DNA from: Escherichia coli | Lineage (GTDB): Bacteria > Pseudomonadota > Gammaproteobacteria > Enterobacterales > Enterobacteriaceae | Length of the DNA: 64,000 nucleotides | Assembly: GCF_965641715.1 (NCBI RefSeq) | Contig: NZ_OZ282453.1 | Reading direction: 5' to 3' (one strand) | Shown here: piece by piece, positions 1-6,000 of the stretch | Position numbering within the stretch: position 1 is the first letter of the stretch | Layout: each line of letters starts with the position of its first letter | Position numbers: made by a program

Positions 1-3000
1 TCAATCGCCAGTTTAAAAGTGACATGCAGCATTACGCCCAACTGTTCTGGCATTGTTCACTCAGTGACGCCGACTATCAAAAATTGGTGGCGAGCTAATG
101 AGAATCATAAACGGATGTATTTTGCTGCTGGCAGCTATCAGTATCACTTTTGCCGCCGTAAGTGGGGCTTATCATCTCGATATGCAGCAACTGCTGGCGC
201 TAATTCTTCGTCAAGAAAATGTTCCTGTGCAGGAACAAATTGTCTTCTGGCAAATCCGCGTGCCGCGTATTCTTGCTGCGCTGTTACTGGGCGCGGCGCT
301 GGCAGGAGCCGGAACCACCTATCAGGGAATGTTGCGTAATCCCTTAGTTTCACCGGATATTTTAGGCGTCTCCGCAGGTGCCGGACTTGGTGCCTGCACG
401 GCAATTCTGTGGGGATTATCCATTGTTTACATCCAGCTGTACGCATTTTGCGGCGGGCTGATGGTGGTCGCGGGCGTCTGGTTGATTACGCGTCGGGTGA
501 CCCGCCACGATCCGATCTTAACCCTGGTGCTGGTAGGCATTGCGTTAGGAACGTTGTGCGGAGCGGGGATATCGCTAATTAAAACGCTGGCCGATCCTTA
601 CACCCAGTTACCGTCAATTACCTTCTGGTTGCTGGGGGGACTGTCCACCGTGACCTTACGCGATCTCTGCTATGCTGCACCGATCATTCTCATAGGCTCC
701 TTGCCCCTGTTTTTTCTCCGCTGGCGCATGAATTTACTCACGCTTTCCGACGACGAAGCCCGTTCGCTGGGACTGAACGTGACGCGTCTGCGCTTTGGAT
801 TGATTGTCTGCGCCACACTAATCACCGCCAGTACGGTAGCAATAGCGGGCATAATTGGTTGGGTCGGCCTGGTCGTTCCGCACATTGCCCGCTTGTTGAC
901 CGGTCATAACCATCAGCAGCTGTTGCCCATGGCAATGTGTACTGGCGCGATTCTGCTCCTGCTTACCGATACGCTGGCACGCAGTATTGGAACAACAGAA
1001 ATCCCACTTGGCATTCTGACCGCTTTTGTTGGCGCACCGTTTTTCCTGCTTTTGTTGTTACGCGGAGGTCGCCAGTGACTTTGCTTGCCGTCCGTCATGC
1101 GTCTCTGGGTTACTCCCGCCATCCGGTGCTACGCGACGTGTCCTTCACCCTGTCGCAAGGAACAATTTGTTGTCTGTTAGGAGCCAATGGTTGCGGCAAA
1201 ACCACACTCATGCGCTCCATTCTTGGCGTTATACCGTTATTAAAAGGCGAGGTCTTACTGGATAGCCTCCCTGTGCAGACACTCAGCCATCGCCAGCGCG
1301 CGCAGGCTATTGCCTGGGTGCCGCAGGCGCACGACGGTATTTTTGCTTTTAGTTTGCTGGATATGGTGTTGATGGGCCTGGCCCCCACCATAGGCGCTTT
1401 TTCCGTTCCCGGTAAGCAAGAACGCCTGAAAGCCACGGAGCAACTGGAAAAGCTGGGCATTTTGCATCTGGCGGCACGACGCTGGAATACGCTTAGCGGC
1501 GGTGAACGTCAGCTGGCTTTAATCGCCCGTGCACTCGTCCAGCAACCGCGCTTGTTGTTACTGGATGAGCCTGCCTCCAGCCTCGATTTCGGTCATCAGA
1601 TCCAACTACTGGACACGCTGGCACAGCTCAAAAATAACGGCATGACAATGTTAATGTCGACTCATCATCCGCTCCATGCCAACGCCATTGCCGACAGCAT
1701 TATCCAGGTAGAGCCAGATGGACGAGTAACACAAGGCTCACCGACCGAACAGTTAACAACAAACAAACTGGCTGCCCTGTATCGGGTTTCTGCCGACCAG
1801 ATTCATCATCACCTCTCTGCAATTAGCCACTAAGGAAAAATCATGCTCATTGATGATATTGATTTTGCAGACCTTTATCTGCAGCAACTCAAGCTGGCCC
1901 ACCGCACAGAAAAAACGCCGGATCACTGGGATCAACGGGCGGAAAAAATGGCGGAAAATTGCGCCTCGCCTACGGACAGCTACCTGCAACAACTGATCGC
2001 TAAAATTGACCTACAAGGCGCTCAGACCTTATTCGATATGGGCTGCGGACCGGGTACCGTATCGCTGGCGCTGGCTGACAAACTCACGACGATTTATGGC
2101 GTTGATTACAGTCAGGGGATGCTGAACGTTGCCGCCCGTCGAGCCGCCGCGCTGAAGGCAGACAATGTCCACTGGATCCAGCGCGCCTGGGAAGAGGACT
2201 GGAGTGACCTGCCACGCTGCGATATTGCCGTGGCTTCCCGCTCCACTCTGGTGGCTGATATGCGCCAGGCAATGAGCAAACTGAATAATCAGGCACGGCT
2301 TCGCGTCTATACGACTCATCTGGTCAGCACCTCGTTCGTCTCTCCAGCCATTCAGCGGGCGGCTGGTCGGGAAGTGATCGAATTACCCAACTATATCTTT
2401 GCGCTCAACGTCCTGTATCAGATGGGAATTTATGCCCACGTTGATTTTATCCGTGGACAAAATTGCCAACAGGATAACAGCACCTGGGAACGTTTTGAGC
2501 AGAACGTCAGCTGGAGTCTTGGCGCGCTTAACGACGATGAGCGTGAGCGGTTATATCGCTGGTATCAACAACAAGATGCTCGTGCCCTCGCCCCTGCCAG
2601 CCGCGACTGGGCGCTCATCTGGTGGGATAGCGTACCGCAGGAGGCACTGCGATGATTTTCCTTTCTCAGGCACAAATCGATGCGTTACTTCTGGAAGATA
2701 TCCAGGGCGGTGACCTGACCACGAGAGCATTAAATATTGGACACCAGCATGGCTATATAGAGTTTTTTCTCCGTCAGGGCGGCTGCGTTAGCGGCGTTTC
2801 TGTCGCGTGTAAGATGTTAACTACGCTGGGATTAACTATTGATGACGCGGTCAGCGACGGTTCACAAGCGAACGCGGGTCAGCGGCTAATCCGTGCGCAG
2901 GGTAATGCCGCAGCACTTCATCAGGGATGGAAGGCAATCCAGAATGTGCTGGAGTGGAGTTGCGGTGTTTCTGATTATCTCGATCAAATGCTGGCGTTAC

Positions 3001-6000
3001 TTCGTGAACGTTATCCTGATGGCAATATCGCCTGCACCCGAAAAGCAATTCCGGGCACCCGCTTACTGGCCTCGCAGGCAATTCTGGCTGCCGGAGGACT
3101 GATTCATCGTGCCGGATGTGCGGAAACCATATTATTGTTTGCCAACCACCGCCATTTTCTTCATGACAATCAGGACTGGTCAGGCGCAATCGATCAGTTA
3201 CGTCGCCACGCACCCGAGAAGAAAATTGTTGTTGAAGCCGACACGCCGAAAGAGGCAATCGCCGCGTTACGCGCGCAACCAGACGTACTTCAGCTCGACA
3301 AATTTAGTCCGCAACAGGCAACTGAAATTGCGCAAATAGCGCCGTCGCTGGCCCCCCACTGCACGCTGGCTCTGACCGGCGGAATTAATCTGACGACACT
3401 CAAAAATTACCTCGACTGCGGCATTCGCCTCTTTATTACCTCCGCGCCTTATTACGCGGCACCGGCTGACATTAAAGTCAGTCTGCAACCCGCAGCCTCT
3501 ATTTAATTCTTTGTTAAACGGAATTTATTCTATGAGACTCAAAAAACATTATCTCTGCACAGCATTATCACTTGCCTTTACCCAGCAGGCCGTAGCGGCT
3601 CAGGAGAGCGACTCGCTGACCGTATGGTCCAGTCCGGTATCATCGACGACGACCACCGTTCTCGATCAACCCACCATGAAGGCCCTGGATAAACAGAATG
3701 TCGCTCAGGCATTAAGTGTCGTCCCCGGCGTGGTGCTGCAAAAGTCAGGCAGCCGCAACGAAGAACAGGTAAAAGTTCGTGGCTTTGATAGTCGGCAGGT
3801 GCCGGTCTATTTCGACGGTGTGCCCATTTATGTTCCCTATGACGGCAACCTCGATCTGGCGCGGATTCTGACCAACAATCTGGGGGCAGTCGAAGTTTCC
3901 AAAGGGTATTCGTCGCTGCTTCAGGGGCCTAATCAGATGGGCGGAGCCATTAATATCACCACCCAGAAGCCAACAAAACCTCTGGAAGCAAGTCTGGGAT
4001 ATCGCCAGGGATGGAGCCGTAGCCAGGACAATGCCTACGATGTGCATGCTTCATTTGCCGCCAGTAGCGATCTGGGGTATTTGCAAGTCAGCGGTAGCCA
4101 GCTAAAGCAGGATTTTCTCGGCCTGCCGCATGGTGTAAATAATGATATTGCAGGCAAACACGGCAAGATGATTAATTCATCGGCTGATGATAAACGCGGC
4201 ATTGTGAAGCTCGGATTTACACCACGTGAAAACGATGAATACACACTGACTTACATTAAGCAGGATGGTGAAAAAGATAACCCGCCATACAGCGGAAATA
4301 GTGGTCAAAAATCACGCTACTGGCAGTGGCCAGAGTATGACAAAGAAAGTTTTTATTATCAGGGAACGACCCAACTAAACGATCGTTTTACCATGAAAAG
4401 TCGGCTGTATCGCGACACCTTTGAAAATACGCTGATGATGTACAACTCGCTGGCTGATTTGAAAAATAAAAAAGGCAGCTACAGCCATTATTCCGATTAC
4501 AGCGACGGTGCCGGATTACAACTGGCAGCCGATGTGCGTGAAAACGATCTGCTGTCGTTTGCCGTTAACTGGAAAGATGACGTACACCGGGAAAAAGGTG
4601 CGCCGCACGCCGCTTACGATCGCTATGAAGATCGTACCTGTTCGCTCGCCAGTGAATATCAATGGGCTGCTGCCGATAATGTCGATGTCGTGGCTGGAAT
4701 CAGCTATGACTGGCGCGATAGCGTAGAAGCGAAAAAACACGAGAAAGATGACAGCATCACCCATTATGACGACAACAATCAGTCAGCTTTTAACTGGCAA
4801 GTGATGGGGAAATACCACTTTGCCAATGAAGACACGCTGGCGCTTTCGTACTATGACCGCACACGCTTTCCGACGCTGAAAGAACGCTATACCACATCCA
4901 AACCTGCGTATAACCAGATAGCGATTGTTAACCCGCAGCTCAAGCCGGAACGCGCTCGCGGGGTGGATTTAACCTGGAATGGTGCCTTCACGCGCGACTG
5001 GGGATTTGAGGTCAGCGTTTACTATAACCGGGTGAGTGATGCCATCCTCTCGCACAATATCGATGCCGATACCATTCAAAATCAGAACAGCGGCACGGTG
5101 GATTACAGCGGTCTGGATGCCGGTATTAAGGGGAAAATCAGCAATATACTGGATGTAGGATTGAGCTACGCCCTGATCCACGCTGACGCCAAACGCAAAG
5201 ACATCGGCAAGATAACCGATCTGCCAACGCAGACAATGACCGCATGGATGACTCTCAAACCGTGGGAGCCGTTAAGCGTAACGCTGTCGGAAGAGGCGCG
5301 TTCCTCCAGCTACAGCAACAGTGACGGTTCACAAAAAGCCGCCGGTTTTGCGGTGACCCACATTCGAGCCGATTACACCTTAGGTCATGGCTTCAGCGTC
5401 AATGCGTCGGTCAATAACCTGTTTGATACCCAATATGCCTACAGTGAAGGGTTTATTGAAGAAGGCCGCAATTTCTGGGCAGGTGTCGAGTATACGTTCT
5501 GATGTGAAAGCGGATAGCGGCATCTGTATCGCTATCCGCCTTATGAAAATCTTATTCTCTTCGCAGGAGGCGGAATACGCCCAGAACGAGAATAGCTCCC
5601 ACCACCGCCACCAGGAAGCTGTGCAAATTAAAACCGCTGATGGAGCCGCCAATGCCAAACATGGTCGCCAGCCAGCCGCCGACCACCGCACCGACTATCC
5701 CGAGAATACAGGTCAGGAAAAATCCACCACCATCACGCCCCGGCATGATTAGCTTGGCGATAATGCCGGCTATCAGGCCAAAAATAATCCAGGCAATAAT
5801 TCCCATGTTCAGGCCCTCGTTTCGATGAATCGGACGCAAGAAATGCTTACGTCAACGCTCTAAGTATAGGCAAGGGCGGGATCGATGCTGGGCGTTTGTC
5901 GGCTGATTTAAGAACAACATGTAAAAAATATTCACGCATTTGTATTAAGTTTTGTTAACTATGACCGATAAACCAAAGACAGTTTGTCAGTCAGGAGTTT

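Follow-up and report, generated by a model that had tools for sequence, protein, structure and literature searches.

The window, a stretch of 64,000 nucleotides of Escherichia coli DNA (assembly GCF_965641715.1, contig NZ_OZ282453.1), opens inside an operon. Its positions 1-5502 hold the 3′ part of a set of six genes on the + strand, which code for a substrate-binding protein, the permease and the ATPase of an ATP-binding cassette (ABC) importer, a methyltransferase that depends on S-adenosylmethionine (SAM), the protein ModD and a TonB-dependent outer-membrane receptor. The promoter region of this operon carries a perfect operator sequence for the regulator ModE. Here, we describe the operon, its promoter and its relatives, and we propose, with a probability of roughly 0.7, that it is a ModE-repressed, TonB-dependent uptake system for molybdenum (molybdate, and probably also tungstate).

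All six genes are present and intact at the coordinates given for them in an earlier note, which had been made from the sequence alone (Table 1). The gene content described there agrees with the open reading frames (ORFs) of the window and with the RefSeq annotation of a related strain, A16. The tight translational coupling that it had noticed is confirmed by the junctions, which were read from the sequence. The binding-protein and permease genes overlap by 1 nt in TAATG, with the binding-protein stop codon TAA at 96-98. The permease and ATPase genes overlap by 4 nt in GTGA, and the methyltransferase and modD genes by 4 nt in ATGA. A gap of 9 nt with a ribosome-binding site separates the ATPase gene from the methyltransferase gene, and a gap of 25 nt separates modD from the receptor gene. 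As the earlier note had also remarked, this layout is unlike that of a standard siderophore or cobalamin importer. The hairpin that follows the receptor gene is likely to serve as a terminator shared with ymgE.

The window begins about 0.9-1.0 kb downstream of the operon's start and promoter, which were read from strain A16 (locus L001; a window position equals the L001 position minus 9000). This strain is 99.7% identical, and its RefSeq annotation gives the same gene set for the operon. The binding-protein gene of A16 spans L001 8076-9098 and is labelled 'iron ABC transporter substrate-binding protein'. The receptor is annotated as 'TonB-dependent receptor plug domain-containing protein', and the permease is labelled 'FecCD family permease' by the Prokaryotic Genome Annotation Pipeline (PGAP).

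Table 1 Features of the operon and its downstream border, in window coordinates.
Feature	Positions	Strand	Remarks
Periplasmic substrate-binding protein gene, 3′ end	1-98	+	Full gene 340 codons; start 924 nt upstream of window position 1
FecCD/BtuC-type (type II) ABC importer permease	98-1078	+	ORF
ABC transporter ATPase	1075-1833	+	GTG start overlaps permease stop
Class I SAM-dependent methyltransferase	1843-2655	+	270 aa, cytoplasmic; motif I DMGCGPG
ModD, quinolinate-phosphoribosyltransferase-like	2652-3506	+	TIGR01334
TonB-dependent outer-membrane receptor	3532-5502	+	656 aa; alternative TTG start at 3511
Deletion scar: last 24 nt of the receptor gene	5479-5502	+	Sole remnant of the operon in K-12-like strains
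Hairpin GCGGATAGCG-N10-CGCTATCCGC	5510-5539		Read from sequence; between the convergent receptor gene and ymgE

The promoter region and its ModE-type box

The palindrome CGATATATATGTAAATATATAGCG is a perfect ModE operator sequence, and 24 nt separate its end from the first start codon of the operon. It scores 14/14 on the specified core positions of the ModE consensus and fits the published form of this consensus, ATCGnTATATA-N6-TATATAnCGAT (PMC545781). Its 8-8-8 geometry is that of the K-12 operators of modA, CGTTATATTGTCGCCTACATAACG, and of moaA, CGCTATATACATGATTACATAGCG, so that the operators of modABC, of moaABCDE and of the present operon have in common a 24-bp palindrome, CGnTATAT-N8-AyATAnCG. 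The placement is the same too, as the modA operator ends 19 nt before its start codon, compared with 24 nt here. Because the geometry equals that of modA, whose operator mediates repression, repression by ModE-molybdate is suggested, and we infer that ModE would bind and repress at this predicted operator. The palindrome is the only match with at most two mismatches in the 23.9-kb locus, for which 0.01 matches are expected by chance. At the same threshold, there is no ModE box within the 64-kb window itself (0.13 expected).

In an alignment of the promoters of four E. coli lineages, E. albertii, Citrobacter and Raoultella (alignment A2), the box forms a conserved island in diverged DNA. A conserved TTGACA, seen by eye in this alignment about 18-20 nt upstream of the box, gives an approximate placement of the promoter. 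A scan with the sigma-70 consensus returned no promoter at the ModE box.

Signals for other kinds of control were sought in the same region. The best match to a Fur box in the 331-nt upstream region is 12/19, which 47% of shuffled sequences reach, and iron regulation is rejected because this is no better than chance. A cmscan search of L001 7600-15100 against Rfam (E≤1) matched no family in the leader or in the operon, and control by a cobalamin or molybdenum cofactor (Moco) riboswitch is rejected. The iron or cobalamin frame in which the operon had been viewed is thus not upheld: both checks are negative, and a perfect and conserved ModE operator is present.

The conservation of the box was followed in 80 loci, which were fetched from representative genomes via the methyltransferase family and onto which the six proteins were mapped. 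Over 1.09 Mb, the box scores are bimodal, with 300 sites at 10/14 and 32 at 11, and then 25, 44 and 23 sites at 12, 13 and 14. A box of at least 12/14 is found in all of the 41 Enterobacterales and Shewanella loci that start with the binding-protein gene; its distance to the start codon is 16-46 nt in 40 of them and 107 nt in the remaining one. Where the receptor gene stands more than about 100 nt apart, there is usually a second box, located 9-52 nt before the receptor start. Such second boxes occur in Proteus, Providencia, Morganella, Pectobacterium, one Serratia and three of five Shewanella loci, while the set-apart receptor gene has none before it in two Shewanella loci and in one locus each of Klebsiella and Burkholderiales. 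The receptor genes set apart by 100-300 nt that have a box of their own belong to loci L022, L026, L027-L029, L031, L033-L035, L038, L041-L044 and L047-L049. Of the six receptor-first loci from betaproteobacteria and Pseudomonas, five have the box upstream of the receptor gene. The position of the box is conserved across the Gamma-, Beta- and Epsilonproteobacteria.

Decayed operons were observed as well. In Pluralibacter gergoviae (L019), the genes ahead of the methyltransferase gene are reduced to fragments of those for the binding protein and the ATPase, and in Edwardsiella (L030, L032 and L045) the methyltransferase and ModD genes are left alone. A ModE-type box is still found upstream in both cases.

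Distribution of the operon and its loss from K-12

Of 5426 complete E. coli genomes, 2139 (39%) carry the operon in the interval from treA to ymgE; O157:H7 and an O2:H1 strain are among these carriers. In E. albertii and several Citrobacter species, it is found between the same two flanking genes. In K-12-like strains, the treA-ymgE interval is occupied by ycgY in place of the operon. According to the earlier note, K-12 has ycgY and treA beside ymgE in place of these genes, and the K-12-like locus bears this out. The synteny comparison that it had proposed, run over E. coli and the Enterobacteriaceae, gave the operon as absent at the K-12 locus and conserved in E. albertii and Citrobacter.

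Matches to operon-less strains obtained by megablast start at query position 5479. The comparison of the K-12-like locus with A16 by blastn places the boundary at the identical position, with the scar (about 6001-6024 of the K-12-like locus L002) and the hairpin retained beside ycgY. The 24-nt remnant is recognisable as the scar of a deletion or replacement, and the operon was lost from K-12-like lineages, as opposed to never having been there. The GC content of the operon, about 0.51-0.55, is similar to that of its flanks. Since it matches these surroundings, and since E. albertii and Citrobacter hold the operon at the same place, we regard the operon as ancestral at the treA-ymgE locus. The same observations rule out a horizontally acquired island. 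The suggestion of an acquired accessory element, made before this comparison, is consequently replaced by that of an ancestral operon of which K-12-like strains keep a 24-nt scar.

A further difference from the K-12-like locus is found elsewhere in the window. An ORF of 482 aa at 10850-12298 (+), between cvrA and dadX, is absent from that locus and hypothetical in A16. Over residues ~150-355, it matches type III effectors (YopM, SspH2, SlrP and IpaH) in their LPX leucine-rich repeats, with 4ow2 at 4.5e-28. The protein is without the E3-ligase (NEL) domain and has an acidic tail with LEKLEK repeats; the local GC content is 0.45-0.48.

The transporter proteins, ModD and the methyltransferase

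The ABC importer is related to MolBC-A of Haemophilus influenzae. For the permease, the best solved relative in the PDB is HI1471 (MolB, 2nq2; 2e-64), behind which rank FhuB, the haem permeases and BtuC. The permease reaches no equivalog cut-off of NCBIfam, where its best matches are the BtuC, FhuB and FecCD families. The best-matching importer ATPase in the PDB is HI1470 (MolC), at 1.7e-35. When the family profile of the binding protein is compared with the PDB, 4pag is first (4e-48) and MolA (3psa) third (1.6e-17). The AlphaFold2 (AF2) model of the binding protein, which has a predicted local distance difference test (pLDDT) score of 88, gives a consistent ranking in Foldseek: 4pag is again first, with a template-modelling (TM) score of 0.77-0.81 and 26% identity, and MolA is at rank 3, with a TM score of 0.65-0.68 and an identity of ~21%. 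Profile and model agree that, among characterised proteins, MolA is the closest to the binding protein. The entry 4pag, a structural-genomics structure from Sulfurospirillum deleyianum, shares the motifs PFxWxDxPP and SxHxE with the binding protein; it is uninformative on the substrate because it is itself uncharacterised. A twin-arginine motif is conserved at the N-terminus of the binding proteins, for example MSLTRRRFTQIL and MAINRRQFL (L001 8076-8140 and orthologues), which suggests their export by twin-arginine translocation (Tat). The earlier note had not recognised the operon as a characterised system. This needs to be revised for the ABC core, which is homologous to the characterised MolBC-A.

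The receptor has a signal peptide at its N-terminus and a conserved motif resembling a TonB box, (D/E)xxTVWSSP. The models TIGR01783, TIGR01785 and TIGR01786 match it along its whole length, below their subfamily cut-offs. Signal peptide, TonB box, plug and β-barrel, the features of a TonB-dependent receptor, are all found in its sequence and annotation.

ModD scores 504 bits with the ModD model TIGR01334, for which the cut-off is 178.85, and the E. coli protein is on this basis an unambiguous member of the ModD family. With the NadC model, TIGR00078, it scores 134.9 bits, below the cut-off of 198.4. We aligned 48 ModD sequences to the quinolinate phosphoribosyltransferase of Mycobacterium tuberculosis, the residue numbering of which is used here. 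The residues T138, R139, K140, H161, R162, E201 and D222 of this enzyme are invariant in all 48 sequences, K172 is replaced by Phe in all 48, and R105 is replaced by Lys in 44. ModD is thus probably an enzyme, but not a quinolinate phosphoribosyltransferase. A 'modD' deletion named in a paper on Tat in extraintestinal pathogenic E. coli (ExPEC) appears to be a misprint for mdoD.

In addition to motif DMGCGPG, the methyltransferase has an invariant CDIAVASRST block and an extra invariant cysteine, C126, in a conserved block. Its orthologues carry the Pfam domains Methyltransf_11, _12, _25 and _31. The AF2 model (pLDDT 91) matches many SAM methyltransferases, as expected of a class I enzyme. The structures found by Foldseek are generic small-molecule methyltransferases, with TM scores of 0.5-0.6 and at most 20% identity; they give no clue to the substrate, and enzymes similar to ArsM or TehB are not singled out by the fold search. 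None of the named methyltransferase families reaches its NCBIfam cut-off, the best being CpaM with 43.5 bits against 180. Taken by its sequence and fold matches, the methyltransferase is a distinct and unnamed family.

Orthologues of the methyltransferase occur in the Gamma-, Beta- and Epsilonproteobacteria and in the Acidobacteria, and genes of molybdenum transport adjoin them in most of the loci examined. In Aliarcobacter the gene order is modE-modA-mop-modB-modC-methyltransferase-modD, and in Vreelandella it is modD-methyltransferase-modA-modB. The Rhodoferax cluster has the order receptor, binding protein, permease, ATPase, methyltransferase, modA, modB and ModD. That of Comamonas has the order receptor, binding protein, permease, ATPase, methyltransferase, modB and ModD, the ORF before modB lying outside the scan. 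The cluster of a Burkholderiaceae genome ends with modE. Shewanella has kept the receptor, the ABC genes and the methyltransferase, and is without ModD. The scanned neighbours are molybdenum transport or regulatory genes in every locus so scanned; about a dozen distant loci, whose neighbours carry no identification, are outside this comparison. Receptor, type II importer, methyltransferase, ModD and modAB are modules that combine freely, and most loci have the box.

Because the methyltransferase and ModD occur together with modABC and without a receptor, the role of the pair appears tied to molybdenum. The free combination of the modules and their molybdenum-related neighbours also argue against the processing of a ligand of this receptor by both enzymes. 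Modification of the substrate after uptake, or processing of a ligand, had been suggested in the earlier note on account of the two enzymes; it is not favoured by a pair that occurs with modABC in loci lacking the receptor.

Individual loci deserve a brief mention. In a metagenome-assembled genome (MAG) of the Rhodocyclaceae, a radical-SAM protein (L066 7809-8903) directly follows the methyltransferase; its best hit, HmdB-like, reaches 90 bits, well below the cut-off. The locus L005 (JAIJJM010000374.1) is a 3.2-kb contig binned as a MAG of Collinsella (Actinobacteria). Its identity to E. coli in the genes for the ATPase, the methyltransferase and ModD is 97-99%, and it is almost certainly a mis-binned Escherichia contig.

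Proposed molybdenum uptake, other readings and known systems

The proposed molybdenum uptake system would work as follows. When cytoplasmic molybdate is low, ModE would leave the 24-bp operator, which is predicted to overlap the core promoter, and all six genes would be transcribed. The receptor would move a scarce molybdenum species across the outer membrane, powered via TonB. The binding protein, which is related to MolA and has a Tat-type signal, would pass the substrate to the type II ABC importer, which is related to MolBC. In the cytoplasm, ModD and the co-inherited methyltransferase would perform a step specific to molybdenum. We infer the identity of the substrate from these relationships, and likewise that the receptor and the ABC importer would handle the same substrate.

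Several observations weigh against this proposal. The public annotation is that of an iron transporter. The binding protein is only ~21% identical to MolA, and the uncharacterised 4pag is much closer. The receptor has no close characterised relative, as the search of the PDB matches its plug region alone (~E 1e-6). A box directly upstream of the binding-protein gene is missing from three distant loci, L059, L072 and L079, and none was scored for L064 in the 400 nt that precede its receptor gene. Small oxyanions normally pass the outer membrane via porins, and for this reason the species carried by the receptor may be larger or complexed; as free oxyanions are not obviously in need of a receptor, there is room for a complexed substrate. 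In addition, MolBC-A of H. influenzae has a low affinity (about 100 µM) and is no scavenger (PMC4031551).

The question of a complexed substrate leads to a reading in which molybdenum or tungsten is imported on an organic chelator, or as another complexed or thio-molybdenum species, and ModD and the methyltransferase act on the freed ligand. Such a role would suit the usual substrates of TonB-dependent receptors, which are too large or too scarce for porins, and those of type II importers with class III binding proteins, which are usually chelates. It would also suit the small-molecule fold of the methyltransferase and the near-complete phosphoribosyltransferase site of ModD, in which K172F suggests an organic acid other than quinolinate as the substrate. 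We consider it unlikely, however, given that the two enzymes accompany modABC alone, with no receptor, in Aliarcobacter and Vreelandella, that H. influenzae and nif clusters have ModD but not the methyltransferase, and that Shewanella has receptor, ABC genes and methyltransferase without ModD. Furthermore, MolA binds molybdate and tungstate in their free form, and no genes for the biosynthesis of a chelator are located next to the operon. The operon could otherwise be ModE-controlled and have a different role in molybdenum starvation, either the import of a substitute oxyanion or metal (tungstate, vanadate) or the detoxification, by ModD and the methyltransferase, of non-cognate oxyanions that enter via derepressed transporters. 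This is in line with the response of ModE-type regulation to tungstate as well as molybdate, and with the binding of both by MolA (PMC4031551). The linkage with modABC, modE and nif clusters, on the other hand, fits molybdenum itself most simply. C126 may point to a likeness to metalloid methyltransferases, but the fold search had no preference for enzymes like ArsM or TehB. E. coli is also not known to have tungsten or vanadium enzymes, and a role of this kind seems improbable.

It is very improbable that the operon imports an iron complex (siderophore, haem or ferric citrate) or a corrinoid, with the palindrome being incidental or serving another regulator. This reading agrees with the names given by PGAP to the binding protein and the permease, with the best NCBIfam matches of the permease (BtuC, FhuB and FecCD) and of the receptor (TonB siderophore or haem subfamilies), and with the weak similarity of the methyltransferase to CpaM, a corrinoid-protein-associated methyltransferase. 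None of those NCBIfam models is matched at its curated cut-off, however, and there is neither a Fur box above chance nor a cobalamin or other riboswitch. The palindrome is perfect for ModE, has a position conserved across three proteobacterial classes and recurs, as a second copy, ahead of the receptor gene, and the neighbours in other lineages are modA, modB, modE, mop and modD. A molybdenum uptake system under ModE remains the reading that we prefer.

The full-text literature that was searched describes neither the operon nor the methyltransferase, and no TonB-dependent receptor under ModE control, though an earlier in-silico prediction is possible. The recent reviews and papers on molybdate uptake name only ModABC, MolBC-A, sulfate transporters and the Pseudomonas route formed by its type VI secretion system (T6SS), ModA and IcmP. 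At about even odds, the operon would constitute the first TonB-dependent route by which molybdenum (or tungsten) crosses the outer membrane, one that is under ModE control, widespread in Proteobacteria, carried by pathogenic lineages of E. coli (O157:H7 and a strain of O2:H1) and lost from K-12. In the same proposal, ModD and an unnoticed methyltransferase family would constitute a conserved cytoplasmic molybdenum-handling module that travels with either kind of molybdenum transporter.

Blooms of Enterobacteriaceae in the inflamed gut are driven by anaerobic respiration that depends on molybdoenzymes, and tungstate has been proposed as a means of suppressing them. To our knowledge, the models of molybdenum uptake in E. 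coli all come from K-12, a strain without the operon. If our proposal is correct, ~40% of E. coli, O157:H7 included, would hold a second, energised and ModE-controlled route for molybdenum or tungsten, and differences between strains in molybdenum scavenging and in sensitivity to tungstate would become testable. The unexplained 'low-affinity' MolBC-A would be seen in a wider setting. ModD, which has been an orphan for 30 years, would gain a fixed partner in the methyltransferase and a tractable genetic host, and a widespread 'iron transporter' annotation would be corrected.

The operon can be compared with known systems at each of its levels. Unlike modABC and moaABCDE, it is absent from K-12 and hence falls outside the experimentally defined ModE regulon of that strain, its operator being a predicted site. 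TonB-dependent uptake of metals other than iron is known for nickel (FrpB4), zinc (ZnuD) and copper (OprC). The present receptor would resemble these in being placed under the regulator of the metal supplied, but no sequence relationship to them was found beyond the plug and barrel of the family. The literature searched holds no molybdenum example of TonB-dependent uptake. The ModD of modABCD in Rhodobacter capsulatus and that of nif clusters share with the E. coli protein the link to molybdenum transport or use. This link is seen in modDABC of Geobacter and in nifUSVW-modD of Zymomonas and the Rhodospirillales. What sets the present ModD apart is its coupling to a receptor and a type II importer together with a dedicated methyltransferase.

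The closest system is that of H. influenzae, in which HI1470, HI1471 and HI1472 form MolBC-A, a type II ABC importer of molybdate and tungstate (PMC4031551). MolA binds both oxyanions in free form, and transcription of molB is repressed by molybdate in that organism (PMC4031551). The mol cluster also holds modD (HI1473) (PMC3928620). The permease, the ATPase and a modD within the cluster are thus common to both systems, and the repression by molybdate in H. influenzae parallels the ModE box described here. Unlike the E. coli operon, the H. influenzae cluster, as given in PMC3928620, is without a TonB-dependent receptor and a methyltransferase and has in their place a modA-like gene and another ABC pair. 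Relative to the molybdate cluster of MolBC-A and ModD, the receptor, the new methyltransferase and the predicted placement in the ModE regulon would be new. Set against the low affinity of MolBC-A, the added receptor suggests a scavenging role for the E. coli system.

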